A stretch of DNA of 64,000 nucleotides from Phycisphaerae bacterium (GTDB lineage: Bacteria; Planctomycetota; Phycisphaerae; Sedimentisphaerales; UBA12454): contig JBGOWI010000002.1 of NCBI GenBank assembly GCA_041478555.1, forward strand, positions 14,622 to 78,621, given 5' to 3'. This document shows positions 721 through 62,213 of this stretch, one piece after another. The position numbers and the translations under genes were made by a program. How positions within the stretch are numbered: the first letter of the stretch is position 1; each line of letters starts with the position of its first letter. The notes under the pieces are model-generated. The model was not told the origin of the DNA and did no database searches. It was given only the letters and a program-made list of their open reading frames with translations.

Positions 721-1125
721 ATCAACTACCTTCCAAAATCTGCCTATATATTGACCTAATTCCAGAAATAACAAATAATTATCGTAACGTCCAATAATAC
801 GCTTCAGAGGTATTTAAAGTCAAGCTTATGTCGTAAAATGGTTAAAAATAAACGCAAAGTGGCGTTCTTTTGCTGATTGCAAAGTGGTACAATTCTAATT
901 GACGGTTACAAGTAAGTTCTTTTCTATTATATGCTGAGGAAGCGGGGTTTGGGTGTGTAGCCCAAAACCTGAGGCTAAAGCATATAGAAGAAATACGGGA
1001 TTTGTAAGGAGGAAAGAAAATAGATGACATGAAAAAGCATTGGGAAAGAGTAAAAAGTGCGGAAAATGAATGTTAAGGATGTAAGTTAAGAATGATGTAA
1101 AATTATTTTTTAGGAGAAGAGAAGA

Positions 1126-6148: not shown

Positions 6149-8728
6149 ATGCGTAAAAAAGGTTTGGCATGTCTGCTTTTTGTCTTGCTGCCGCTTCTGT
6201 GCAGCAGGGGTATATGTCTAAATTATCGCTACGGGCCAGCCGCCGATTTCAGCAACGACAAGGCGGTAAATTTCCAGGACTTCGCAGGATTGGCTGCCGT
6301 CTGGCTGAGCGACGCCAATCAGCCTGACTTCAATGATGTTTATGACCTGTATGACGATAATGCTGTTGATATGGCTGACCTTGGCGTTTTTGCACAGTAT
6401 TGGCTCTGGCAGCCTGCGGCGACTCACAGGGAAAAGATTAATTTCAATATCGGCTGGAAGTTTTACAGAGGCGCCATTTCAGGCGATGAAGCGAATAAAC
6501 CTGACTACAATGACAGTTCCTGGTATTATGTAACAACCCCCCATAATCCGCCACGGGATTCAAATATCCCTCCGGTCCCTGACCCTGCACGTCCCGTCTG
6601 GGGCAGTTACAGTTATGAGGGCGTCAGCTGGTATCGTAAACATTTTACTATAGACAGTTTCTATCAAACGCAGGGACGAAAGATATTCATAGAATTTGAG
6701 GCTGCGAATACCGTTGCAGACGTGTGGATAAATGGCACTAAACTGACAACCCACTATGGCGGTTATCTGCCTTTTACGGTTGACATCACCAACTATGCTA
6801 ATTTTGGCACAACCGAGAATGTTATAGCTGTAAAGGTTAATAACACATACAACGCCGATGTGCCTCCCGGCGAGTCCGGCTGGTTTAATTGGCCGGGTAT
6901 CTACAGAGATGTCTGGATGCATATCACCGATAAGCTGCATGTTACCGATGCGGTTGATGCAAATAAGATTGCAGGCGGCGGCATATTTGTCACGTATCCT
7001 GATGTAAATGTTTCACAGGCCCATGTCCAGATTAAAACAAACGTGAAAAATGAATATGGTGCAGCGAAGAACTGTACGGTAAAAACCTACCTTCTGGACG
7101 CTGACAACCAGATTGTTGATACAAATGCAATGTCAGACACGAACAGTATCGCTTCCGGTGCAAACTGTACTTTCACGCAAACGGCCAAAGTCAGCAACCC
7201 TTGTCTGTGGCACCCTGACCATCCTTATCTTTATACTGTTTCTACAGAGGTATATGACGACAATACTCTTGTCGATACTTATCCGACACGCATAGGTATC
7301 AGAAAAATAAACTTTACTAAGGCCGGCGGCTTTAAAATTAACGGCGAAACACTCAGGTTCATGGGCGCCAACAGAATGCAGGATTATCCATACGTGGGAT
7401 ACGCTATGTCCAATTACGAGCAGCGCCGCGACGCTGTGCAATTGAAAGAAGCAGGATTTCAGTGCATACGTACGGCGCACTATCCTCAGGACCCTGCTTT
7501 TATGGAGGCCTGCGACGAACTTGGCCTTATGGTTATGGATTCAATACCCGGTTTTCAGAATTGGGGCAACTCGACTTTTCAAAGTCGTTCTTATCAGAAT
7601 ATGAGGGATATGATTCGGCGGGACAGAAACCATCCCTGTGTAATTGTATGGGAACTTTCACTGAACGAAACATCTGGCATGACCTCCACTTATGCGAGTC
7701 AGGCAATGAGTATAGGCCATGCTGAGTATCCCGGCGACCAGTGTTTTGTAGCCGGCTGGAAATTTGGCTGGCCGTCAGAATCTGTAATCTATGATATCTT
7801 CATCGCCACGCCGAACGCCAATGCGAGAACCTACAACGGGGTACTGCCGCTTATAATCAGCGAATACGGCGATTATGAATATGGAGGCACAAGTAGTGTA
7901 CATCGTGCTACGTGGCTATCGGGCGGATATAGCGGCGAAGTAGCGATGCTTCAGCAGGCATGGAATCATCAGGAAGGACTGCATTTGAACCGCGGCTTAT
8001 CGAATATGTGCGGAGACGAGTTATGGGTCGGTTTTGATTATGGCCCTTATCCACAAGGAGTAATCGATAAGCTTCGTGTGCCGAAGTTTTCCCATTACTT
8101 TTTCCGGAGTCAGCGCGACCCGAACCTGATTATACCCGGTATTGATTCGGGTCCAATGGTGTATATAGCCAATTACTGGACTTCTACATCGCCGCATGAT
8201 GTAAACGTTTACAGCAATTGTGAGCAGGTGAAATTATATATCAATAACGTACTTCAGGGTACCCGCACCCCTAACACCGGATATCCTAATTCGAATTTGC
8301 TGCATCCGCCATTTTCATTTACAGGCCTGACCTGGGCGGCGGGCGAACTAAAGGCCGAAGGTTATATCGGCGGTAACCTGGTTGCAACACATATTGTCAG
8401 GACGCCCGGTACAGCCAGCTCTATTGTCGTCAGTTTCGATGCGAGTGAACTGGTTGCGGATGGTTCAGACATAATTTTCGCGTATGCCTCTATTGTTGAT
8501 GCTAACGGTACGGTTGTATCGAGCAATAGTAGTTATATTACGTTTAATGTTACTGGTCCGGCTACTTTGGTTAGTCCAAGTGTTATTCGTGCAGAGGCCG
8601 GTATTTCGACTGCTCTGCTACGGTCGTCAACTCGGCCTGGACAGATTACCGTGACTGCCACAGCAACCGGTTTGAGCAGCGGTACTGCCAATATAAACAG
8701 CATTATGGGTGAAAGGGTTCAGGATTGA
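6149..8728 (+). CDS. Secreted GH2 glycoside hydrolase (beta-galactosidase-like) with an N-terminal dockerin-like module
   Basis: The track ORF starts at TTG 6143; ATG 6149 gives MRKKGLACLLFVLLPLLC. DFSNDKAVNFQDFAGLAAVWL..DDNAVDMADLGVFAQYWLW are two dockerin-like repeats. GH2 motifs: GVSWYRKHF, HYGGYLPFTVDIT, IRTAHYPQDP, NHPCVIVWELSLNE. Confidence 0.85.
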   Translation: MRKKGLACLLFVLLPLLCSRGICLNYRYGPAADFSNDKAVNFQDFAGLAAVWLSDANQPDFNDVYDLYDDNAVDMADLGVFAQYWLWQPAATHREKINFNIGWKFYRGAISGDEANKPDYNDSSWYYVTTPHNPPRDSNIPPVPDPARPVWGSYSYEGVSWYRKHFTIDSFYQTQGRKIFIEFEAANTVADVWINGTKLTTHYGGYLPFTVDITNYANFGTTENVIAVKVNNTYNADVPPGESGWFNWPGIYRDVWMHITDKLHVTDAVDANKIAGGGIFVTYPDVNVSQAHVQIKTNVKNEYGAAKNCTVKTYLLDADNQIVDTNAMSDTNSIASGANCTFTQTAKVSNPCLWHPDHPYLYTVSTEVYDDNTLVDTYPTRIGIRKINFTKAGGFKINGETLRFMGANRMQDYPYVGYAMSNYEQRRDAVQLKEAGFQCIRTAHYPQDPAFMEACDELGLMVMDSIPGFQNWGNSTFQSRSYQNMRDMIRRDRNHPCVIVWELSLNETSGMTSTYASQAMSIGHAEYPGDQCFVAGWKFGWPSESVIYDIFIATPNANARTYNGVLPLIISEYGDYEYGGTSSVHRATWLSGGYSGEVAMLQQAWNHQEGLHLNRGLSNMCGDELWVGFDYGPYPQGVIDKLRVPKFSHYFFRSQRDPNLIIPGIDSGPMVYIANYWTSTSPHDVNVYSNCEQVKLYINNVLQGTRTPNTGYPNSNLLHPPFSFTGLTWAAGELKAEGYIGGNLVATHIVRTPGTASSIVVSFDASELVADGSDIIFAYASIVDANGTVVSSNSSYITFNVTGPATLVSPSVIRAEAGISTALLRSSTRPGQITVTATATGLSSGTANINSIMGERVQD

Positions 8729-13457: not shown

Positions 13458-15536
13458 ATGATAACGCCTAAAGTTCCAAAGATTATATTTGGCGGAGATT
13501 ACTTTCCTGAACAGTGGCCCCAGGAAATCTGGAAGGAAGATATCCGCCTGATGAAGCAGTCCAATGTAAATATGGTCAGCATTGCCATTTTTACCTGGGC
13601 ACTTCTTCAGCCTGATGAAGATACTTATACCTTTGACTGGCTGGATAAAGTGATGGATCTTATAGCAGAAAATAATATTTATGCCTGTTTAGCCACTTCA
13701 ACGGCAGCTCCTCCTGTCTGGCTGGCCTGTAAGTACAGTGATGTTCTGCCGGTCACAGAATCGGGGCAGAGAATCGATTATGGTTCCCGGCAGGCGTACT
13801 GTATCAACAGCCCTACTTACAGAAAATTCATCCGCAAATTAGCTGAAAAAATGGCCGTCCGTTATAAGGACCACAAGGCATTGGCCTTGTGGCATATCAA
13901 TAATGAGTACGCAAACAAAAACCAAATGTGTTTCTGTGGAAACTGCGAAAAACTTTTTCGAGAGTGGTTAAAGGGAAAATATGAAACCATTGACAGGCTG
14001 AATGAAATCTGGGGTACTGTTTTCTGGGGAGAAAGATACGCTTGCTGGGAGCAGATAAATACGCCCAAGGCCAGTAGCGGCTCAAGGAATTCCACAAAGT
14101 TGCTTGATTATAAAAGGTTCTTAAGTGAAAGCTTTTTTACTCTGTATCTGGAGGAATACAATATCCTCAGACAAATTACGCCGAGTATACCTATTACTAC
14201 TAATTTTGAAGGGGACTGGCGTAAATTTGACCACTCGTTATTCAAAAACCATTTAGATGTGGTCTCGTGGAACTGTTATCCGGACCCGGCCAATCCTGAT
14301 TCGCGCAAATGGGCGGCGCTGCGACATTCTATGATGCGTTCTTTACTGGGCAGGCCATTTATGCTTATGGAACAAGCCCCTTCACAGGTGGACTGGTATC
14401 CGGTGAATATTAATAAACCTCCCGGACTGATGCGTCTGTGGAGTTATCAGGCTCTGGCTCATGGCTCCGATTCGATAATGTATTATCAGTGGCGGGCTTC
14501 CAGAAAGGGCGCTGAGAGATACCACAGTGGTGTAATTCCACATTTCGGTGAAGATTCGAGGGTATTTAAAGAGATATGCAGCTTAGGCAATGAATTGGAA
14601 AAGGCAAAAGATATTGTCGGTTCCGACATAGATTCAAAAGTGGCAATTGTTATGGATAACGATTCATGGTGGGCGATCGATAATCCATACGGTCCTGCCG
14701 GCAGTAAATCCCTTGATAATGAGGTTTTCTGGACCGCCAATGCTCAGCCCTTCCCAACAGTGCTGGTCAGTTATTTTGGCGAGCTGGAATACTATTTTAA
14801 TGCTCTGTATGACCTGAACGTTCCGGTTGATGTTATTCCCGTTCATTATGATTTCTCGAAGTATAAAATCGTTATCGCTCCGCTTCTACATATGATTAAA
14901 CCGGCCTTTAAGGAAGCCGTAGAGAGTTTTGTGAAAAAGGGCGGTATCTTTGTTACGACTTATTTTACAGGGCTGATTGACGAATCTGTAGGCGTATATC
15001 TGGGCGGCTACCCCGGACCGCTGAAAGATGTTATGGGTATCAAGGTTGAAGAATACAACCCATTACCGCCTGGCAGCAGGAACACAATGAAAATGACTGC
15101 GACGCTCAACGGTTTTAAAAAAGATTACGGCTGTTCAGTATGGTGCGATGTCATCCATACGACAGGTGCGAAGGTGTTGGCAGCATTTGCAAATGATTAT
15201 TATGCCGGCAGTCCGTGTTTTACTGAAAATCAGTTTGGAAATGGAAAAGCCTACTATGTAGGTACCAGGCCGGATGAAGATTTTATGAGAGATTTCTTTA
15301 CGAAAATTTTAAAGGAGCAGGAGATTGACTTGCCCGATTTGCCCCAGGAAGTCGAGTTGATGACCAGGTCCAAAAAAGGCAAGTCCTATTGTTTTTACCT
15401 GAATTATGGAGAAAATGAAAAGACAATAAAGCTACCCTCAGGCAGATACGAAGATATACTAACAGGAACTATCTGTGAGCGAACGCTGACTTTGGCTAAA
15501 TATGGTGTATCCATTTTAAGGAGCAAATGGCGTTGA
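13458..15536 (+). CDS. GH42 beta-galactosidase, cytoplasmic
   Basis: GGDYFPEQWPQEIWKEDIRLMKQSNVNMVSIAIFTWALLQP and WHINNEY are GH42 hallmarks; length 692 aa. Confidence 0.88.
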   Translation: MITPKVPKIIFGGDYFPEQWPQEIWKEDIRLMKQSNVNMVSIAIFTWALLQPDEDTYTFDWLDKVMDLIAENNIYACLATSTAAPPVWLACKYSDVLPVTESGQRIDYGSRQAYCINSPTYRKFIRKLAEKMAVRYKDHKALALWHINNEYANKNQMCFCGNCEKLFREWLKGKYETIDRLNEIWGTVFWGERYACWEQINTPKASSGSRNSTKLLDYKRFLSESFFTLYLEEYNILRQITPSIPITTNFEGDWRKFDHSLFKNHLDVVSWNCYPDPANPDSRKWAALRHSMMRSLLGRPFMLMEQAPSQVDWYPVNINKPPGLMRLWSYQALAHGSDSIMYYQWRASRKGAERYHSGVIPHFGEDSRVFKEICSLGNELEKAKDIVGSDIDSKVAIVMDNDSWWAIDNPYGPAGSKSLDNEVFWTANAQPFPTVLVSYFGELEYYFNALYDLNVPVDVIPVHYDFSKYKIVIAPLLHMIKPAFKEAVESFVKKGGIFVTTYFTGLIDESVGVYLGGYPGPLKDVMGIKVEEYNPLPPGSRNTMKMTATLNGFKKDYGCSVWCDVIHTTGAKVLAAFANDYYAGSPCFTENQFGNGKAYYVGTRPDEDFMRDFFTKILKEQEIDLPDLPQEVELMTRSKKGKSYCFYLNYGENEKTIKLPSGRYEDILTGTICERTLTLAKYGVSILRSKWR

Positions 15537-32167: not shown

Positions 32168-34423
32168 TCACCGAGTCTCGATGTAAGGTTTGCCAGCCTT
32201 ATACAAAACCAGCCGGCTTTTAATCTCCTTTTTGAGCGTTTCTTGTTCGGAAGATTGGCATAACTCCAAAGCCTTTTCTGCTGTCTCTACGGCCTTACCG
32301 AAGGCACCCGTCGCAGCATAGGTCGCAGCCAGCGTATCCAATAATCCGGGTTTTTTGTATTTAGTAAGTTCGCAGGCGTGCTGCGCAAGTTTGAGCGCCC
32401 TATCGGGATTGTGGACCGTAGTTTTCTTACTTGTAGCCAGTAACCAGGCCAGGTCATTCATAGGCTCAACCCAGTCAGGTTTGAGTCGCAGCGCCTCCTC
32501 GAAATGTACAATGGCCTCATTGATTTTACCCCTTTGCGCCAGAACCTGCCCAAGATAGTAATGCGCCTCCGCATGGTTAGGGTCCAACTGCAGTGCTTCA
32601 GTAAAATGTACGGCAGCATCATTGTGGTTGCCTTGGAGGACTAAGGCATAGCCTAAATCGGTATGAGCATCGGCAAAATCAGGCTTTATCCGCAGGGCTT
32701 CGGTAAAGTATTTAATGGCTTCATCGAGTTTGCCCTGCCGGCCAAGTGCAAGACCAAGAGCGTTGAGTACATTCGGGTCATCCGGCTCCGTCTGAAGAGA
32801 TTTTCGATATTCCTCGGCGGCCTGGTCAAATTTTTCCTGCCGGTAGAGTACTGCACCAAGGTTATTGCGGGCAATAGCATTTTGGGGCTGAGTGAGCAGG
32901 ATTTTTTCATACTCTTTCACCGCTTCTTCGAGTTTGCCACTGTTGGTCAATGCGTATCCGAGATTGATACGGAAGTTGACAAAATTAGGTGCGATTTGAA
33001 GGGCTTTATTGAAGGGCGAAATGGCCTCAGCGAATTTGCCCTGCTTCATAAACGTATCCGCTATGTTGGCGTAAGCTATGTAGTTATCATTGGTTACTTC
33101 GAGTGCGTGCTGAAAAAGTGTTATGCTGTCTTTCCAATATCGCTGCTGGAGGTGTGCCTGTGTGGCGAGTGCGAATAAAACTATCAGTGCGGACGCCCAG
33201 AGTGCGATTTTTCGATGCGGCCATTTTCCGAGCAGTTCGGGTAAGCCCCAGGCAATAATAATAAATAAACCCGTCAGGGTGATGTAGCTGTAGCGGTCGG
33301 CCATAGCCTGGTCACCAACCTGGACAAGACCAATAACAGGCACGAGTGTTCCAAGAAACCAAAACCAGCCTGTGACAAGGTATCGACGGTTTTTGGAGAA
33401 TCGAAGTATAAGGATTGTTACGACTATCAGAACACCGGCAGACATCGCGGCATGTGAAAACGACACGCCCTGGACGGGGTGTGGATAAAACACGGCCAAT
33501 CGGCTCGGCCATATCATTTTCCTTATGTATTCCATGTAAGAGACAAGGGCGTTGGAGATGCGAAACTTTAGAGGAACCAGAGTAATCGGCACCACTATTC
33601 CGCCGCTTCGCTGTGCAAAGAAGGTAACGACACTTGAAACTGCCGAGAGGGCAAAGAAAGGGGTTTTTTCCCAGATCAGGTGATAGAGTATCAGTTTGTG
33701 AAAGTGGATATCCATATGTTTTTCATTCTGTTTGCCAGTTTTGACGACGGCCTGTCCGGACGGGATGCGAGCAAGGGGCCAATAGTCCAGCAGCAGTAAT
33801 ACAAACGGTAAAGTTACGAGCATGGACTTTGCCATGATGCCCAGAGCGAAGGTCAACAATGTTAACAGATAGCGAGCAGTGCCCGGATGTTTGACATATC
33901 GCAGATACGCAGCCATCGTAAGTATCCAGAAAAAAGTGCTCAAGACATCTTTACGCTCGGTGACCCAGGCAACAGATTCGACATGGAGCGGGTGAAGAGC
34001 GAATAAAGCCGCCACAAATGCGCTCGGCCAGAGCGAACCTGTCATCTGTTTTAGAACAACAAAGAGGAGCAGGGTATTCGCAATATGAAAAACCAGATTG
34101 ATAAGATGATGGCCTCCGGCGTTATGGCCGAAGAGCTGCCAGCCCAGCATATGTGAAAGCCAGGTTAAGGGATGCCAGATACTGGTGTGAGTGGTAGTGA
34201 AGGCCCACTTGATGGCTTTAAAAGTGATACCAGCCTGAATGTCCGGATTTTGGTAGACATAGACGTTGTCATCATAATTAACAAAATCATATGTCCAGAC
34301 CTGATAATAAACTGCTATGGTAGCAAACACCAAAGCCGCGCAAATCCAAAATGTGTGAAAATAATTGGGGTTATAATGGTTTTTGTTCACGTGTCCCTCG
34401 ATTATGTAAAGAGTTTTAGCCAT
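32168..34423 (-). CDS. TMTC-like membrane protein: GT-C-type (DUF1736) multi-TM N-terminal domain plus C-terminal TPR repeats
   Basis: YDDNVYVYQNPDIQ..IWHPLTWLSHMLGWQLFG..HHLINLVFH is followed by ~10 TM segments and ~8 TPR units (..A..Y..AL...P....A...LG..). Confidence 0.75.
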   Translation of the reverse strand: MAKTLYIIEGHVNKNHYNPNYFHTFWICAALVFATIAVYYQVWTYDFVNYDDNVYVYQNPDIQAGITFKAIKWAFTTTHTSIWHPLTWLSHMLGWQLFGHNAGGHHLINLVFHIANTLLLFVVLKQMTGSLWPSAFVAALFALHPLHVESVAWVTERKDVLSTFFWILTMAAYLRYVKHPGTARYLLTLLTFALGIMAKSMLVTLPFVLLLLDYWPLARIPSGQAVVKTGKQNEKHMDIHFHKLILYHLIWEKTPFFALSAVSSVVTFFAQRSGGIVVPITLVPLKFRISNALVSYMEYIRKMIWPSRLAVFYPHPVQGVSFSHAAMSAGVLIVVTILILRFSKNRRYLVTGWFWFLGTLVPVIGLVQVGDQAMADRYSYITLTGLFIIIAWGLPELLGKWPHRKIALWASALIVLFALATQAHLQQRYWKDSITLFQHALEVTNDNYIAYANIADTFMKQGKFAEAISPFNKALQIAPNFVNFRINLGYALTNSGKLEEAVKEYEKILLTQPQNAIARNNLGAVLYRQEKFDQAAEEYRKSLQTEPDDPNVLNALGLALGRQGKLDEAIKYFTEALRIKPDFADAHTDLGYALVLQGNHNDAAVHFTEALQLDPNHAEAHYYLGQVLAQRGKINEAIVHFEEALRLKPDWVEPMNDLAWLLATSKKTTVHNPDRALKLAQHACELTKYKKPGLLDTLAATYAATGAFGKAVETAEKALELCQSSEQETLKKEIKSRLVLYKAGKPYIETR

Positions 34424-34730
34424 AGTGATAATTCTATAACTTAGGTCTATATTTTAAACAATACAGAAATCAAAGATTTACCCACAGTGAACCTCACTGG
34501 CGGGAAAACCGCGATGTCTACAAAAAAATCATCAATGCAAGAGAAAAGCCGATTCGCCGCAGTATGCCCTTCACTATGGCCTTTAAAACCGACTAAATTA
34601 ACTATTAAGGATTTAAAGCCTCCTGTTATCGTTAATTTTGTATATCTTTGGCGATTATCGCTTTATGGGGTGAAACGCAGGATTTTTTATAATTATTTGC
34701 CACGAAAATTAAAAAAGCGCAAAAAAAGTC

Positions 34731-34777
34731 TTGACGTGCTTAAACAAAACTGGTACTATCCAGTAAACGTTTACTTG
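34731..34777 (+). promoter_or_regulatory. Promoter plus LacI-type operator, copy A
   Basis: TTGACG-17 nt-TACTAT, then the palindrome AGTAAACGTTTACT (34762-34775). Confidence 0.65.
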
Positions 34778-35016
34778 TTCTTTAATCATTTAGAACGTGT
34801 AATTATCGGGTGTTGACAAGTCCCCCATAGGGAGGAGGACGAAATCAATCTCCCAAAGAGTGTAAAAGATATGCTCCGAATGCAGTCAGAGTTTGGAGGT
34901 GTGTCTTGTAAAATTTATTTATAGTGTTTGGTATTCGAATGTTAAACTTTTAAAGTGTCGTATTTGTAACCCGAAATGAAGAAGTGTTCCTTAATTTTTT
35001 TAAGGAGGAGTAGATT
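34778..35016 (+). promoter_or_regulatory. Conserved ~240-nt 5' leader, copy A (candidate cis-regulatory RNA)
   Basis: Near-identical to 38205-38439; the core is shared with 36003-36125. It contains a CTCCGAA-11 nt-TTTGGAG hairpin, C-rich/G-rich alternative pairing segments and the SD-covering hairpin TCCTTAA-ttttt-TTAAGGA (34988-35006). Confidence 0.5.
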
Positions 35017-35760
35017 ATGAAGAAACTAATTGTTTGTTGTTTTATGTTGGTTGTGTTAAGCATGCCAGCATATGCGGATTTCACTGTGACGACAATTGCC
35101 GACCTGTCTGCATGGCCGGATTCGCCGCAGGTTAAATGCACAGTGAATCCTGGCACTGACACCACACCCGCCAACGGCCAACCCTATTCGCCAGAGCAGA
35201 ACTGGGGTGGTGGCGCTCTGCAGCAGCTTGGTCAGGTTTTTATGGTTCCCAGCTCGTACATCGGAACTCCAACATTGGACAAGGTTGCCGTTAAACTCAG
35301 CGGTACTGCTGGCACCTTGAGCGTCAAGTTGTATGACCTTTGGCCGGGAGACTTCAATGATAATTTCCACGGATGGGGCAATGGCAACCAGGGGACCTTG
35401 AGTCCTGTTAACCTTACGACCAACGCGACTCTCTTGATTAACGACACGTGGGCTTATCCAGGCAGTGCCACCGCGAAGGTGTATCTGTTGGATTTCACTG
35501 GCAGTCAAGAGGTAGCACTTGCGTATGCTGAAAAGTATATGTTCGTACTGGATCATGATAATACTTTTCAGGTGTCGTGGTACCGCAATGGCCTCTATAG
35601 CTACACCGATGGTGATGTGTATAGAGACACCGGCGCGGGTACTACTATGCAGTATGTCAATGGTGCTGGCCGCGAGGCCGGTATGGCTGTCTATATTCCC
35701 GAGCCGGCGACTATCGCTCTGTTAGGTCTTGGACTGGCTTTGCTCAGGAAGCGCAGCTAA
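35017..35760 (+). CDS. Secreted PEP-CTERM-anchored protein (unassigned beta-rich ectodomain)
   Basis: Signal MKKLIVCCFMLVVLSMPAYA and C terminus IPEPATIALLGLGLALLRKRS. A strong RBS taaggaggag is present. Confidence 0.9.
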   Translation: MKKLIVCCFMLVVLSMPAYADFTVTTIADLSAWPDSPQVKCTVNPGTDTTPANGQPYSPEQNWGGGALQQLGQVFMVPSSYIGTPTLDKVAVKLSGTAGTLSVKLYDLWPGDFNDNFHGWGNGNQGTLSPVNLTTNATLLINDTWAYPGSATAKVYLLDFTGSQEVALAYAEKYMFVLDHDNTFQVSWYRNGLYSYTDGDVYRDTGAGTTMQYVNGAGREAGMAVYIPEPATIALLGLGLALLRKRS

Positions 35761-35797
35761 TTTGTAACTGACTATTTATTTAGTTAAGTTAATAAAG

Positions 35798-35847
35798 CGC
35801 CAACGTAGCCTGCACTGAAATGTGCAGGAGACGGAGGCGTTTTTTTT
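35798..35847 (+). terminator. Rho-independent terminator
   Basis: CCTGCAC-tgaaat-GTGCAGG lies within a longer GC stem, followed by T8. Confidence 0.75.
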
Positions 35848-35955
35848 GCGCAGATTTGCCAAAATTTCAGGGTACTTATATCTTCTATCTTTCTGATTGT
35901 GCTTTTTGACGGACCAAAAAACGGAAAAAGAACAAAAGTAAAGAACAAAAAAACC

Positions 35956-36002
35956 TTGACAAGCCCAAACGAGGATGATAATATCAAGTAAACGTTTACT
36001 TG
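35956..36002 (+). promoter_or_regulatory. Promoter plus LacI-type operator, copy B
   Basis: TTGACA-17 nt-TAATAT, then the perfect 18-bp palindrome CAAGTAAACGTTTACTTG (35985-36002). Confidence 0.7.
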
Positions 36003-36208
36003 TTCTTTAGTTATTAGAATGTGCAATTATCGGGTGTTGACAAGTCCCCCCATAAGGGAGGAGGACGAAATTAATTTCCCAAAGAGTGTAACGACATGCT
36101 CCGAATGCAGGCAGAGTTTGGATGTGTGTATCGGGTTTGTATAGAAATGTTTGAAAAAAACATTAAGGAAATAACAGGTAAAAATTATTATAATTAGGAG
36201 AGGGTGCT
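36003..36208 (+). promoter_or_regulatory. Conserved 5' leader, copy B (shared core, different 3' part)
   Basis: The core 36003-36125 matches copies A and C. The 3' part carries an AATGTTT-gaaaaa-AAACATT hairpin that is also found at 63785-63803. Confidence 0.45.
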
Positions 36209-37975
36209 ATGAAATATAAAATTGAATTATTAATTGTGGCTTCGGTGTTTTTTTGCCTGTTACTGGCGCAGGCTGCCCCGGCCGGCAACACGATGAAAAC
36301 TCTCTATATAGATGGAGTGAAGGTCAATGAGACTAATGACAACACCAGTGGTCTTACTTGGCCTGAGCCGCCGAAGGACCGTATAACGATTGGAGCTGAG
36401 AACGACCGCTGGTACCTCTATAACGAATATATTGGAAAAATTGATGATTTCGCGGTTTACGCAGGTGTTCTGAGCGCTACCCGCATAAAGGCGCATTACG
36501 ATGCTAACGCGGACTATACTGCTTATAAAAATGCAGTGCAGGCGGATGCACCGTTACTATGGCTGAGGTTTGATGATGCCAGCGTGGCTAACGAAGCTGC
36601 TGCTGAAAATTCAGGCAGCATAGGGATAGACGGCAATTACGTTCAAACAGGCGGCAGCCCTTTTACTCAGGTACCCGGTTTCAATGCCGACAGTAATGCT
36701 TTAAACTTCCCTGATACTGTTGCTGATGCTGCCGGCCACTGTGTGGACATGTGGGACGGCAACGGGGACTTCGGCGAGGACCTCGATGGTGATGTAACAG
36801 TCGAGCTATGGGTCAACTTTACCGACATTGGTAACCCATTGGAGCCTGAAAACGACTGGCCGAGATTTTACCAGCACGGAGGCGGTTATGGTCTTATGGT
36901 TAGCGGCCCCAACGAATTAGGTATTCAAGGCGGCGATGCTACAAATTATATAGGTTTTCCAGATGAAAATGACATTAATGACGGTCAGTGGCACCACATT
37001 GTCGTTACCTATGACTCAACTTACGGGGCGCCAAATCTACCGCCTGCCGCCACGTATGTCGAGGAGGTGAACAAGGATAATCCCGTCCTGTGGCTGCGGT
37101 TTGAGGATACTCAACCGAAAGACTACTCTGTCGCCGACGGCAACCATTGGGTTGGTTATGGTACTGCGTTGAGCATTGTAGATAAAGTTGGCGGAATCGG
37201 AAAGTCCGCTTACTTAAATGGTCCAGATGATGGAGCCGTCTATTGTGCTGCAGCGACGAATAACCCGAACGCACCTCCCTTAGTTAGCGAGAGCTATGAA
37301 GTTTTTGATAACAATTATGCCTTTGCCCCCAACGACATAACTTTTGAGATGTGGTACAAGACCCTTCCGACCGGCCAGCCGCAGCCGGGAGACTACGGTA
37401 TATTCTTCCAGCAGTTAGGGAGTGATGAGCCAAGGGCTCCGGGTGTGAGTAATTCCGGCGGCACAATACGTGTTTTCTGCGGCAGTGACACTTGGTATAG
37501 CGGCGTGAGCTCATATTTCGACCAGAAGTGGCATCAATTAGTCGTTACTTATGATGAAGAATACGAAGGCGACCCTTGTTCAATGCACGTACAATTGTAT
37601 TTGGATGGTATTAAAAAGGGCGATGCGAATTTCACCGGCACTGGAGCAAAACTTGGGCCTGAATTGTCTCACGTTATGGTCGGCGCTGAAAGGGACATTG
37701 GGTATACCTGGAATCCATTTCGCGGGTATGTCGATGAGTTTGCTATCTACGCGGGCATCCTGGACCCAAACCGTGTCCTGACTCATTACTCGGCCTGGCA
37801 GCCCCACAATTGTGCGGAGATGTGGGATAGAGGGTTTGGATTGGCTGGCGACTTAAACCACGACTGCAAGGTGAACTTTGCTGATTTTGCCGAGCTTGCG
37901 TTAGACTGGGCAAGCTGCAACGAGCCAAATGCTCCAGGGCAGCCGCCTATCCCGGGTTGCACCCCAAACTGGTAA
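36209..37975 (+). CDS. Secreted multi-LamG (concanavalin-A-like lectin) protein with a C-terminal Cys-containing dockerin-like tail
   Basis: A signal peptide is present. IDDFAVYAGVLSATRIKAHY and VDEFAIYAGILDPNRVLTHY are LamG ends. The tail reads GDLNHDCKVNFADFAELALDWASCNEPNAPGQPPIPGCTPNW. Confidence 0.85.
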   Translation: MKYKIELLIVASVFFCLLLAQAAPAGNTMKTLYIDGVKVNETNDNTSGLTWPEPPKDRITIGAENDRWYLYNEYIGKIDDFAVYAGVLSATRIKAHYDANADYTAYKNAVQADAPLLWLRFDDASVANEAAAENSGSIGIDGNYVQTGGSPFTQVPGFNADSNALNFPDTVADAAGHCVDMWDGNGDFGEDLDGDVTVELWVNFTDIGNPLEPENDWPRFYQHGGGYGLMVSGPNELGIQGGDATNYIGFPDENDINDGQWHHIVVTYDSTYGAPNLPPAATYVEEVNKDNPVLWLRFEDTQPKDYSVADGNHWVGYGTALSIVDKVGGIGKSAYLNGPDDGAVYCAAATNNPNAPPLVSESYEVFDNNYAFAPNDITFEMWYKTLPTGQPQPGDYGIFFQQLGSDEPRAPGVSNSGGTIRVFCGSDTWYSGVSSYFDQKWHQLVVTYDEEYEGDPCSMHVQLYLDGIKKGDANFTGTGAKLGPELSHVMVGAERDIGYTWNPFRGYVDEFAIYAGILDPNRVLTHYSAWQPHNCAEMWDRGFGLAGDLNHDCKVNFADFAELALDWASCNEPNAPGQPPIPGCTPNW

Positions 37976-37999
37976 TAAAAGCTTAATCGTTAATAAAAC

Positions 38000-38041
38000 G
38001 TCAACGTAGCCTCCTTGGGAGGAGACCGAGGCGTTTTTTTT
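38000..38041 (+). terminator. Rho-independent terminator
   Basis: A CCTCC-ttg-GGAGG core stem within a longer pairing, followed by T8. Confidence 0.6.
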
Positions 38042-38157
38042 GCGCAGATATGGCCAAAATTTCAGAGTGCTTATGTCTTCTATCTTCCTGATTGTCTGAT
38101 TGTGCTTTTTGACGGACCAAAAAACGGAAAAAGAACAAAAGAAAGAACAAAAAAACC

Positions 38158-38204
38158 TTGACAAGCCCAAACGAGAATGATACTATTAAGTAAACGTTTA
38201 CTTG
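38158..38204 (+). promoter_or_regulatory. Promoter plus LacI-type operator, copy C
   Basis: TTGACA-17 nt-TACTAT, then AAGTAAACGTTTACTT (38188-38203). Confidence 0.7.
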
Positions 38205-38439
38205 TTCTTTAGTCATTAGGATGTGTCGTTATCGGGTGTTGACAAGTCCCCCATAGGGAGGAGGACGAAATCAATTTCCCAAAGAGTGTAAAAGATATGC
38301 TCCGAATGCAGTCAGAGTTTGGAAGTGTGTCTTGTAAAATTTATTTGTAGTGTTTGGTATTCGAATGTTAAACTTTTAAAGTGTCGTATTTGTAACCCGA
38401 AAGAAGAAGTTTCCTTAATTTTTTTAAGGAGGAGCAGAA
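38205..38439 (+). promoter_or_regulatory. Conserved ~240-nt 5' leader, copy C
   Basis: Near-identical to copy A, including the SD-covering hairpin at 38412-38430. Confidence 0.5.
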
Positions 38440-39192
38440 ATGAGAAAATTATTTGTTTTGTTAGTTGTAGCAGCTTTGAGCATGTCGGCCTATGCAGATA
38501 AGGTTATAGGCACCTGGGAGGTTGGAGAGGTTAACGGCGGTGGATGGAGTGATTGGTCCAGCCAAGCCCGCATTGGTCCGTTCCCTCAAACTATAAATGG
38601 CAACACGTATAACCAAAGCACAATTGGTGTTTCTAATGGGAACAACTCCCTGTCGGTGGCCGCAAAATCAGGTTGGCAGCAGTGCTTGACTATTCGTAAC
38701 TATCAGAGCACATTAGGTTTTTACATGTCGGATTTCCTCAATAACAACAAATTCCAGATTGACGTTACCTATGATAGCGGTAGCTGGCCCTCAAATACGA
38801 GTTATGCTCAGGTGTACCAGTTAGCTATGCAGACCTCAGGCTATGGAATGCATGATGTAGGTGGAACAGCTGCCCCAACCGGCGCCAATGGCGTAGTGTT
38901 TACTGATACGCTCAACCCGGGTTATCCGGGAGGTTTACCCCTTGTGAATCAGGGTACGCCGGGAACCGTCCTATCGGGAACATGGACGTGGGATTACTCC
39001 GCAATATTACCCGGAGGGTCCTATACCGGTAACAAAGTTTCGGCTTCCGATTCGTATGTGAATATTATGTTCGCATTGAATTCCAATGCGGCCGGGACTT
39101 ACTACTTCGACAATGCCCGGCTTACTCCCGAGCCGACGACAATCGCTCTGCTGGGTCTTGGATTGGCTCTGCTCAGGAAGAAAAGAAGCTAA
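38440..39192 (+). CDS. Secreted PEP-CTERM-anchored protein (unassigned beta-rich ectodomain)
   Basis: Signal MRKLFVLLVVAALSMSAYA and C terminus LTPEPTTIALLGLGLALLRKKRS. Confidence 0.9.
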   Translation: MRKLFVLLVVAALSMSAYADKVIGTWEVGEVNGGGWSDWSSQARIGPFPQTINGNTYNQSTIGVSNGNNSLSVAAKSGWQQCLTIRNYQSTLGFYMSDFLNNNKFQIDVTYDSGSWPSNTSYAQVYQLAMQTSGYGMHDVGGTAAPTGANGVVFTDTLNPGYPGGLPLVNQGTPGTVLSGTWTWDYSAILPGGSYTGNKVSASDSYVNIMFALNSNAAGTYYFDNARLTPEPTTIALLGLGLALLRKKRS

Positions 39193-60798: not shown

Positions 60799-60906
60799 TT
60801 TCAACCCATCCTCCGTAGATTGCCAAATTGTTGGCAAGACCCTCCGCCGGTCTTTTTGAAAACACCACCGCAGGTCGACTAATTTGACCCTTGTTCTTTT
60901 TCAAAC

Positions 60907-60961
60907 AGTAAACGATTACCGAACTTCTTATATCATAGCCTATCCTATACTGGTACGTCAA
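60907..60961 (-). promoter_or_regulatory. Promoter of the GH30/GH10 array with a near-consensus LacI-type operator (copy E)
   Basis: The minus strand reads TTGACG-18 nt-TATGAT, then GGTAATCGTTTACT. On the plus strand this is AGTAAACGATTACC at 60907-60920, a 12/14 match to the palindrome. Confidence 0.5.
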
Positions 60962-61105: not shown

Positions 61106-61155
61106 TTGACATTCTTCCAGGACAGTGATAATTTATACAAGTAAACGTTTACTTG
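61106..61155 (+). promoter_or_regulatory. Promoter plus LacI-type operator, copy D (autoregulatory)
   Basis: TTGACA-17 nt-TAATTT, then CAAGTAAACGTTTACTTG (61138-61155), 18-32 nt upstream of the regulator start. Confidence 0.65.
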
Positions 61156-61172
61156 TTTTTTAAGCTGTAAAC

Positions 61173-62213
61173 TTGACGGAGATTAAGGTGGCTGAAACTA
61201 ACTCAGTGCCTACAGTTAAAAAGGTGGCAGCTCATTGCGGGGTCAGCGAAGCTACAGTCAGCCGAGTGTTGAACAGTAATTACAAGCATGGTTTTTCTGT
61301 AAGAGAGGAAGTCCGCCAGCGGATTACTGAAGTTGCAGATGCTTTGGGTTATCGTCCCAACCTTGCGGCAAAAAACCTTGTCAAGCAGCAGACCAAGATG
61401 GTGGCAATTCTTGGTAGTGATATTGCTCTGGGCTGGCCCGGCAATATATATCAGGCAATTATTAATGCGCTTGTCCAGACTCTTCATGTTTGTGGTTATG
61501 ATGTTTGTATTACTGTGCCGAATTTAGAGAAGAGCGAGACAGATCTGCCGTCCTGGAGAGTGGATGGGGTGATTGTGCTTCAGGAATGTTCCGCCAAGAC
61601 GATTGAGCTTATGGAAAGGACCGGTCTGGCTTATGTGGTTATCAATGGAGTTGGCGGCCCGAGTTGTTCTTCAGTTATTCCTGATGACATTGAAGCCACT
61701 CGGCGGGCGATAGGTTATCTGGTGGACCTTGGGCATCGTTGCATAGCTTATGCAGGTCCGATGTCTGACCACAAGAAACACAGGAGTATTGAAGACCGTC
61801 ATAATACATATCTTTCCGCGTTATCAGAGCATGGGATTGAGCCGATTCCCGGCCATGATACCGTCTTTCGCTCAGCCCCTGCCTTTCTGGCTTCGGCGGT
61901 GCTGAAAAATCACGCAACGGCTATCCTTGCATATGACCACATAGAGGCGCTGAAAATTCTTCACGGTGCTCAAGTGCTTGATATCCAGATTCCAAGACAG
62001 GTCAGCCTGATGTGCTTTAATGATGAATATCTATGCAATATTGTTACGCCGGCGCTTACCACCATTGGTGTGCCGCTGCGGCAAATGGGCAGAATAGCGG
62101 CTGAGAGGCTGCTCAAGCAGCTCGAATCGCCTCAGGACCATCTCCCTGAGTGTATAAAGCTCTTGCAGGATTTGAAAATACGAGCCTCTACAGTGCCGCC
62201 TTTAAAAAAGTAA
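61173..62213 (+). CDS. LacI/GalR-family transcriptional regulator
   Basis: VKKVAAHCGVSEATVSRVLN is a LacI HTH, with YRPNLAAKNL as the hinge and a type I periplasmic-binding fold after it. The start is TTG 61173 or GTG 61187. Confidence 0.9.
   Translation: MTEIKVAETNSVPTVKKVAAHCGVSEATVSRVLNSNYKHGFSVREEVRQRITEVADALGYRPNLAAKNLVKQQTKMVAILGSDIALGWPGNIYQAIINALVQTLHVCGYDVCITVPNLEKSETDLPSWRVDGVIVLQECSAKTIELMERTGLAYVVINGVGGPSCSSVIPDDIEATRRAIGYLVDLGHRCIAYAGPMSDHKKHRSIEDRHNTYLSALSEHGIEPIPGHDTVFRSAPAFLASAVLKNHATAILAYDHIEALKILHGAQVLDIQIPRQVSLMCFNDEYLCNIVTPALTTIGVPLRQMGRIAAERLLKQLESPQDHLPECIKLLQDLKIRASTVPPLKK

Follow-up and report, generated by a model that had tools for sequence, protein, structure and literature searches.

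Why would genes for different secreted proteins be preceded by almost the same long leader? This question is raised by a 64,000-nucleotide (nt) stretch of a Phycisphaerae bacterium genome (Planctomycetota; positions 14,622 to 78,621 of contig JBGOWI010000002.1, assembly GCA_041478555.1), analyzed here at its full length and called the window, in which the genes starting at 35017, 36209 and 38440 (genes A, B and C) each follow one copy of the leader (copies A, B and C). Our results show that these leaders are members of a family of modular structured leaders, so far not described, in Sedimentisphaerales-like Phycisphaerae. The family is new, although the kind of element is known, and its hallmark is a hairpin with a nearly invariant apex that we call P2. 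The leader recurs with compensating changes in about 20 related metagenomic loci and has no counterpart among described RNA families, and it therefore probably represents a new element of post-transcriptional control over cell-surface proteins.

The threefold repeat had been noticed in an earlier note made from the letters of the window alone, and the analysis confirms it. GGGTGTTGACAAGTCCCCC is present exactly three times in the window (34808, 36032 and 38234) where shuffled sequences are expected to hold none, and the regions upstream of the three genes align over about 340 columns with a mean identity of 85%. Within this alignment, a core of about 125 nt is 89–93% identical between copies (A-B 111/125, A-C 114/123, B-C 110/124). 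The 3′ continuation of the leader is 94% identical up to the start codon between A and C (110/117) and only about 50% identical in B, while the coding sequences (CDSs) of A and C match at the random level (481/868) and BLASTP aligns the two proteins only over their signal peptide and PEP-CTERM tail.

Part of this likeness comes from recent events within the genome. Ahead of B (35761-35955) and of C (37976-38157), the spacers, each of which begins after a stop codon, includes a terminator and reaches up to the -35 box, are about as similar to each other as the leaders are, and the orthologous spacer in the close relative L005 (related loci are given here as L numbers) is unrelated. In addition, another hairpin, P1, has one apical loop for all copies within a genome and a different one in another genome (CCCAUAGGGAGG in the window, CGGCGGCGG in L005), which indicates that the copies evolved in concert or that they co-evolved with a partner. 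The spacers and the genome-specific loops together indicate that the whole intergenic cassette was recently duplicated or homogenised. Identity between paralogues alone therefore overstates the constraint, and the comparison between species is the fair one. Between species, the leaders of B orthologues are 85% identical overall and 93–98% identical in the 3′ half; promoter plus leader reach 73–98%, with 93–98% between P2 and the signal peptide, compared with 40–58% for the upstream spacer, mostly 62–93% for the CDS and 71% at the amino acid level for the protein. Thus, the statement of the earlier note that the leader is better conserved than the coding regions holds between species (85% of nucleotides against 71% of amino acids), whereas within the genome it reflects homogenisation in part.

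The P2 hairpin and the leader family

P2 consists of an outer helix that varies, an inner helix that reads CCRAAU/GUUUGG across the family, and an apex in which a U.G, a G.A and a C-G pair close a pentaloop. The apex, UGC-NGUCA-GAG, is near-invariant across the family, and folds of single sequences show P2 in nearly every member. In an alignment of 18 sequences, 84.1% of the cells of the 15 P2 pairs are paired, compared with 25–47% when the partners are slid by 1–3 columns; seven pairs changed on both sides, and the covariation score was reached by none of 500 shuffles. Sixty of the paired P2 cells are G.U, and the helix of the antisense strand is only 64.8% paired against 84% for the sense strand. 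This dependence on G.U pairs, and the drop on the antisense strand, mean that P2 is a feature of the sense transcript. A covariance model of P2 run over 705 kb found leaders only, apart from one match with E=0.36 that lies within a coding sequence in L051 and was dismissed as chance, and it recovered two members on which it had not been trained, L108 (E=5e-12) and L111 (E=5e-7). The position of P2 is fixed relative to the operator, at 123–156 nt (standard deviation 11), more than relative to the ATG, at 88–238 nt (standard deviation 40).

The string ctccgaa-tgcagtcagag-tttggag singled out in the earlier note is P2, and it is P2, not the first hairpin or the Shine-Dalgarno (SD) hairpin, that is conserved family-wide. 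An alternative hairpin within P2 (CUCCGA/UCAGAG), which emerged from a scan of the opposite strand, was rejected as it is not kept in other members, and an inspection of several leaders by eye found no pseudoknot partner for the P2 apex.

Relatives of the leader were collected in two ways. Homologues of proteins A and C led to the upstream regions on their contigs, and metagenomes were scanned with the promoter-operator pattern, which takes no account of the leader. The scan returned 90 loci, most of which are LacI-type promoters with short leaders, while 12 carry long leaders of the family. In total, we count 24 leaders, i.e., three in the window, two in L005 and one in each of 19 other distinct loci, and every one of them precedes a gene for a signal-peptide protein, either a PEP-CTERM family member or a LamG protein. 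They fall into a window-like type I (L005, L030, L097, L039, L091, L108, L104), a type I′ (L003, L089, L105), a type IIa (L002, L011, L051, L111) and a type IIb (L072, L081, L085, L016, L101, L035). Canonical P2 is present in 14 of the 17 further distinct leaders counted in other metagenomes and MAGs, and P2 of L104 is divergent. At the P2 site, type I′ leaders have a larger conserved domain with the hairpin CGUUUGG-UGCRUUG-CCAAACG (400-470 in L003; 2820-2890 in L089 and L105), which resembles a P2 with swapped arms (UUUGG...CCAAA in place of CCAAA...UUUGG).

Composition and architecture are shared as well. The C content is 11–17% in all 24 leaders (e.g., window 34762-35016) compared with 23% in CDSs, with 20–30% G on the sense strand, and this C-poor composition fits selection at the RNA level, for example for G.U-rich helices or for few Rho loading sites. 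The SD sequence is very strong in the family leaders, with a strong match to the anti-SD. The sigma-70-type promoter architecture is found again in all related loci. The leader of L104 (GCA_040961035.1, 2540-2859) is of the same type but stands behind another palindromic operator, CTCTAC-N4-GTAGAG, that is present twice, while in L108 (19620-19703) a PEP-CTERM gene has the LacI operator with a leader of only 45 nt. Promoter/operator and leader are therefore separable and exchangeable modules. In the more distant Phycisphaerales bacterium of L113 (CP070678.1, 9537-9636), the leader is about 130 nt long, has no P2 and forms a hairpin CUCGGCC...GGCCGAG that encloses GGAGGAGG; note that a run of N (masked sequence) lies immediately 5′ of the promoter region of this PEP-CTERM gene.

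The family matches no recognised class, and the earlier note had not recognised one either. At gathering thresholds, Rfam 15 gave no match in the whole window, and even at E<=10 nothing fell within the P1-P2-SD part of the leaders; only chance matches below threshold were seen at the promoter/operator edge (SNORA12 at 34644-34788 and Plastid-psbA-2 at 35933-36011). In ten related loci, the same search returned only tRNA and sub-threshold terminator-like matches. A structured DNA pattern of P1 run over the GTDB genome collection gave only two matches, both by chance, and full-text literature searches for RNA elements or untranslated regions of PEP-CTERM genes brought up nothing relevant. Altogether, the proposal that the leader is a conserved RNA-level element and not a one-off duplicate is borne out by related leaders in about 20 other loci with compensatory changes in P2. 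The opposite outcome that the earlier note had allowed for, a recently duplicated segment with neither copies elsewhere nor covariation, applies only in part: recent homogenisation did occur, but both copies elsewhere and covariation were found.

Other modules of the leader and its promoter

P1 is the long hairpin upstream of P2, and its 3′ arm is always an SD-like purine block (GGAGGAC in copy A). It is predicted in all type I members, and equivalent hairpins of other sequence keep pairing in the other subtypes (UCUUCC/GGAAGA, GCCUUCC/GGAGGGC and GGCCUU/AAGGCC). One P1 base pair is U-A in 10 sequences and C-G in 5 across subtypes, and in L108 the lower helix UUGA/UCAA is rebuilt as UUUUG/CAAAA. 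Nevertheless, the comparative support for P1, as for the SD hairpin, is weaker than that for P2. The region of P1 is also where the earlier note had placed a switch, in which GGGAG would pair alternatively with an upstream CCCCC or a downstream CTCCC, and this idea does not survive the comparison. L005 has CGGCGGCGG at this place, and the downstream CCC instead pairs with the basal GGG of P1 in every type I member. GGGAG and CTCCC are complementary in copy A, while the partner in B and C is TTCCC, leading to a G.U pair, and CCCCC-ata-GGGAG offers only three contiguous pairs around a loop of 3 nt. Upstream of P1 and directly behind the operator, a hairpin P0 is predicted in copy A, and inspection by eye finds hairpins of other sequences at its position in relatives (CAUGUAA/UUACAUG in L005, UUUAG/CUAAA in L097 and UCUUU/AAAGA in L039).

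At the other end of the leader, the SD-sequestering hairpin reported for copies A and C is well founded. In the ensemble of the full leader, the SD bases are paired with a probability of 0.7–1.0, and A/C-like leaders from six lineages have the hairpin, with energies of -7 to -9 kcal/mol, 91% of cells paired and three pairs changed on both sides; indeed, CCUUAA/UUAAGG is replaced by CCUAA/UUAGG in L039 and by CCUAAA/UUUAGG in L104. The hairpin is missing from B and from most type II leaders, so occlusion of the SD is not a universal function of the family. A purine tract lies about 15–35 nt before the ATG in nearly all members of all subtypes; it is absent from L030 and degenerate in copy B of the window and in the second leader of L005 (L005b).

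No intrinsic terminator was found on the plus strand in 34776-35016, 36001-36208 or 38203-38439, real ones being present only after genes A and B; a transcription attenuator or terminator-type riboswitch was consequently discarded, as the leaders of A, B and C have no sense-strand terminator. Other likenesses were rejected too. UUGACAA-[GUCC..GGAC]-GAAA superficially resembles a hammerhead core, but GAAA is not followed by a stem III hairpin, the pairing partner of UUGA is UCAA, and Rfam gives no match. For likenesses to a K-turn, a T-loop, an anticodon arm, a TGT site, a PyrR site and a RAT site, the defining features were lacking, and Rfam gave no support. AGAGUUUG(A) equals the 5′ end of 16S rRNA, which we take as a coincidence.

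As for the promoter, A, B and C all have TTGAC(R)-17-TA(N)TAT with the operator 2–3 nt past the -10 box, and the operator AGTAAACGTTTACT, a perfect palindrome, is present in exact copies at 34762, 35987, 38189 and 61140. The fourth copy, with the same promoter, lies ahead of the LacI-family gene 61173-62213, where the leader is only short. By sequence, these promoters have the features of a LacI-family regulon, namely a central-CG palindrome at the putative +1 and a cognate LacI-family gene with an identical operator, and the gene 61173-62213 is likely the regulator of all three promoters; its own operator and short leader suggest that it is autoregulated. The shared promoter, operator and LacI-family gene therefore point to a LacI-type regulon in which transcription would start at the operator and produce an untranslated leader of 210–250 nt. 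An operator copy with two mismatches is located at 60907-60920, after a sigma-70-like promoter on the minus strand that belongs to a divergent operon starting at 60837. TGTAAACGTTTACA, at 8200-8213, sits within a GH2 coding sequence.

The neighbourhood is a glycoside hydrolase (GH) locus of galactan/xylan type, with GH2, GH35, GH42, GH53, GH10, GH30, lacto-N-biose phosphorylase and CBM4_9. A beta-galactosidase of the window shares at least 90% identity with proteins labelled 'Sedimentisphaerales bacterium' and 'Phycisphaerae bacterium' at NCBI, which places the host among uncultivated Phycisphaerae, probably in the Sedimentisphaerales. Next to the leader-bearing genes, both in the window (32168-34423, minus strand) and in the related contig L007 (3510-5498), is encoded a large TPR-repeat protein that also has a PMT_2 (glycosyltransferase-39-like) domain; it is like the PrsT-type TPR proteins of PEP-CTERM systems, with a score below threshold. 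A fourth PEP-CTERM gene lies at 1126-1740, and the roughly 200 nt upstream of it (window 880-1125) are purine-rich and C-poor, with a hairpin GGGTTTGGG...CCCAAAACC and an SD-like GTAAGGAGGAAAG; the sequence is unrelated to the A/B/C leader and has no P2.

Table. Coordinates of the leader modules, promoters and genes (positions are those of the window except for L005)
Feature	Position	Strand	Remarks
Promoter, copy A	34731-34759	+	sigma-70-type, TTGACG-17 nt-TACTAT with TG extension; architecture recurs in B, C and all related loci
Operator, copy A	34762-34775		LacI-family palindrome AGTAAACGTTTACT; overlaps the putative transcription start
P0, copy A	34777-34796	+	hairpin GUUCU...AGAAC (fold); 5′ arm GTTCTTTAAT, boxA-like
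P1, copy A	34808-34854	+	GGG-u-GUUGA-caa-GUCC-c-CC[AUAGGGA]GG-a-GGAC-gaaa-UCAAU-cu-CCC; apical loop 34824-34836
P2, copy A	34868-34905	+	variable outer helix, inner helix CCGAAU/GUUUGG; apical loop AGUCA (34884-34888); fold z-score -3.8
Purine tract, copy A	34978-34984	+	(ARN)n tract GAAGAAG, directly 5′ of the SD hairpin
SD-occluding hairpin, copy A	34987-35007	+	UUCCUUAA-uuuuu-UUAAGGAG, arms 34987-34994 and 35000-35007, -8.9 kcal/mol; SD AAGGAGGAG 35002-35010; start codon 35017
Gene A	35017-35760	+	secreted, PEP-CTERM sorting signal
Promoter and operator, copy B	35956-36000	+	promoter 35956-35984, operator 35987-36000
P1, copy B	36032-36080	+	apical loop 36048-36062
P2, copy B	36093-36130	+	apical loop AGGCA (36109-36113); covariance-model match 36086-36139, 53 bits
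Gene B	36209-37975	+	secreted LamG (Laminin_G_3) protein; SD not occluded
Promoter and operator, copy C	38158-38202	+	promoter 38158-38186, operator 38189-38202
P1, copy C	38234-38280	+	apical loop 38250-38262
P2, copy C	38294-38331	+	apical loop 38310-38314; covariance-model match 38287-38340, 66.9 bits
SD-occluding hairpin, copy C	38410-38432	+	arms 38410-38418 / 38424-38432, -7.8 kcal/mol; start codon 38440
Gene C	38440-39192	+	secreted PEP-CTERM protein; like A only in signal peptide and sorting tail
Operator, short leader and LacI-family repressor gene	61140-62213	+	operator 61140-61153, gene 61173-62213
P1 apical loops, L005	4485-4497 and 5637-5649		

Possible function of the leader

The explanation that we favour, with somewhat more confidence than doubt, is that the leaders are structured mRNA elements that set mRNA fate and translation, with P2 as a factor-docking hairpin. 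Transcription would be switched on and off in response to a sugar, from a sigma-70-type promoter with a LacI-family operator at +1 and through the 61173 repressor, and the C-poor transcript would fold over its first 210–250 nt into P0, P1 and P2. The leader would then add a second, RNA-level layer; within the regulon, only the secreted PEP-CTERM and LamG genes have it. P2 would be where a trans-acting factor docks; this factor, most probably an RNA-binding protein, would set the stability and/or the translation of mRNAs for exosortase-sorted surface proteins. The invariant apex on a covarying stem is read here as a specific recognition site, and as the position of P2 is tied to the 5′ end and not to the ribosome-binding site (RBS), P2 would act on the fate of the mRNA, for example through its stability, its processing or co-transcriptional loading, rather than by pairing directly with the RBS. 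In A, C and their relatives, the strong SD (AAGGAGGAG) may in addition be held in the weak hairpin, at -8 to -9 kcal/mol, and the single-stranded (ARN)n tract before it is a possible ribosome standby or chaperone site. From the SD hairpin of A and C we propose that translation is throttled and could be tuned independently of LacI. The low C content would help such a long untranslated RNA to escape Rho. The transcription start, the factor and its identity, the direction of regulation and the avoidance of Rho are what we infer from these patterns.

Several observations weigh against this reading. The covariation alignment has about 20 sequences of related organisms, so that its controls give an indication but do not equal a formal test such as R-scape, and much of the near-identity within the genome is due to recent homogenisation. 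The type I′ leaders (L003, L089, L105) have no canonical P2, and the stems of P1 are invariant in sequence within type I, so that they speak neither for nor against pairing. The SD is free in leader B and in most type II leaders, and the transcription start is the one predicted from the promoter consensus. Finally, the invariant apex of P2 could instead serve processing or a tertiary contact.

Other explanations account for part of the same evidence. A pure 5′ stabiliser or high-expression leader in the style of ompA or of S-layer genes, with no dedicated sensor or factor, is unlikely but deserves real weight, since the leader is long, hairpin-rich and C-poor, the operator palindrome makes a hairpin at the extreme 5′ end, P2 is placed relative to this end and not to the RBS, the SD–anti-SD match is very strong, and the products are secreted and probably abundant. 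Such a stabiliser, however, has no need for a nearly invariant apex of 12 nt, which is yet kept across lineages on a changed stem, and an SD-occluding hairpin as in A and C opposes maximal translation. The conserved unpaired nucleotides of P2 between variable stems would suit an orphan riboswitch, with P1 and P2 as an aptamer (e.g., for a sugar or an envelope/polysaccharide-metabolism signal) and the SD hairpin, where present, as expression platform; the P1 internal loop CAA/GAAA is conserved in type I, and no known family is matched. We nevertheless consider it rather improbable, because the architecture of P1 varies by subtype while P2 is constant, no multi-helix junction and, for the P2 apex, no pseudoknot partner were found, P2 lies anywhere from 88 to 238 nt from the RBS with the SD free in many members, and the genes are already under a sugar-sensing LacI repressor. 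An RNA thermometer, in which the AU-rich SD hairpin melts with temperature, would use only this one module. With -7 to -9 kcal/mol, the U-rich hairpin is indeed weak, and it is kept in several lineages, but its anti-SD is UUCCUUAA and not UUUU, membership of the FourU or ROSE families was rejected with no Rfam match to either, B and most type II leaders have no such hairpin, P1 and P2 would stay unexplained, and the sources, which are sediments and digesters, probably offer no obvious thermal cue, so that we give this explanation very little credence.

Antitermination by boxA and NusB-NusE, in which GYUCUUUA after the operator would let the polymerase cross the leader without Rho termination, is clearly improbable as the main function. 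In copy A, GTTCTTTAAT (34777-34786) starts about 16 nt into the transcript and agrees at 10 of 11 positions with GYTCTTTAANA, and the corresponding sites of B (36002-36009) and C (38204-38211) agree at 9 of 11, all measured against a gamma-proteobacterial consensus that may not be that of this host. At the equivalent site, GCTCTTTA(A) is found in the type I′ leaders L089 and L105, and long untranslated leaders are natural Rho targets, those of the family being C-poor. On the other hand, GYTCTTTA is short, with seven occurrences in the window against 4.9 expected; part of it is base-paired within P0, type II leaders have no such motif and L005 only a degraded form, and the similar GTTTTTTAA in the short LacI leader suggests shared ancestry of the promoter cassette. 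That the leader has no function past promoter and operator, and was kept only through recent cassette duplication or gene conversion, is largely refuted and of very low probability. The nearly identical stop-to-(-35) spacers of B and C beside the unrelated one of L005, and the P1 loops that are constant within and different between genomes, would speak for it; against it, about 20 other loci, with proteins 30–70% identical, carry the leader with compensatory changes, it surpasses the CDS and far surpasses the spacer in conservation between species, and it stands behind a different operator in L104. Least of all do we expect a leader peptide encoded by an upstream open reading frame (uORF), or a DNA-level site such as a second promoter or operator, to explain the conservation. 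ATG CNG TCA GAG TTT GG could encode M-x-S-E-F-G, and a third frame (window 34873-34896 and relatives) reads A-P-N/D-A-V-R-V-W with much of its variation at third positions. However, a check of all three frames near P2, and of the sequence that follows the SD-like purine block of P1, found no conserved uORF with a consistent start, SD and stop. The first leader of L005 (L005a) has no ATG and variation in the ATG frame is non-synonymous, most members have no start codon or SD for the third frame, which meets stops at the W codon in L081 and L005a, and the phase bias is not significant (estimated p ~0.26). We judge the A-P-N/D-A-V-R-V-W frame to be a by-product of hairpin constraints. The TTGACA hexamer within P1 was likewise rejected as a second promoter, since no -10 box follows at 16–18 nt and type II leaders have no TTGACA, and sense-only pairing that depends on G.U favours RNA over both a peptide and a DNA site.

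Known systems and significance of the family

Long stabilising 5′ untranslated regions are known from outer-membrane and S-layer genes such as E. coli ompA, Lactobacillus slpA and Thermus slpA. The family resembles them in its multi-hairpin leader of 100–250 nt, single-gene operons, abundant exported proteins and strong SD, while there is no homology of sequence or structure, and the invariant apex, the SD hairpins of some members and the LacI operator are features of the family described here. With the leaders bound by CsrA/RsmA, most members share GGA motifs in the loop or 3′ arm of P1 (AUAGGGAGGAGGAC, ACAGGAGGAGGAC) and at the SD, but the GGA of P1 is missing in L101 and L035 and the P2 apex has none. 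FourU and ROSE thermometers have a comparable weak AU-rich SD hairpin (as in A and C), whereas here the anti-SD is CCUU-based, Rfam gives no match, and the hairpin is one optional module of a much longer leader. EAR RNA and the leaders used by RfaH/ops, LoaP and UpxY are alike in having a small conserved element in a long leader of surface or exopolysaccharide genes; those systems act on long operons, however, and the genes here are single and 0.7–1.8 kb long, with no Rfam match to EAR and no ops-like sequence.

BoxA, with the gamma-proteobacterial consensus GYTCTTTAANA, is a Nus-factor site of rRNA leaders and suhB (PMC5725501). Our leaders are similar in being long untranslated RNAs with GYUCUUUA(A) in about their first 25 nt, but the motif is confined to types I and I′ and partly paired. 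For PEP-CTERM genes themselves, more than 65% were found to be single-gene operons with more than 200 nt of non-coding DNA upstream, and the explanation by PrsR and sigma-54 was restricted to Proteobacteria, such regions being left unexplained elsewhere (Haft et al., 2006; PMC1569441). The genes of the window follow the same pattern, including the fourth one at 1126. The proteobacterial element is a DNA site (PrsR enhancer and sigma-54 promoter), whereas the window pairs a sigma-70-like promoter with a LacI operator, and it is the transcribed, RNA-folding part that is conserved; a site of the proteobacterial kind was rejected, as the promoters are sigma-70-like and no GG-N10-GC element was seen by eye in the leader.

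PEP-CTERM/exosortase proteins are widespread in environmental bacteria, and a regulator has been proposed only for the proteobacterial genes (PMC1569441). In this context, the family provides a concrete RNA element for a poorly studied phylum, in which P2 can be used for mutation, as bait for partners and for genome mining with covariance models. It also shows that modules can be homogenised among unrelated genes of one genome, which calls for caution when conservation is judged from paralogous copies alone. A more tentative extension, which we regard as possible but rather doubtful, is that P2 and the leader form the cis element of a dedicated regulator, i.e., an RNA-binding protein or small RNA that reads UGC-NGUCA-GAG (or, as a variant, that the leader is an orphan riboswitch), and that would coordinate PEP-CTERM and LamG proteins in anaerobic Phycisphaerae. 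The family is a good candidate for description as an RNA family and for tracing the missing regulator of PEP-CTERM genes outside Proteobacteria, and if a dedicated regulator exists, it would be the RNA-level, non-proteobacterial counterpart of PEP-CTERM control by PrsR and sigma-54.

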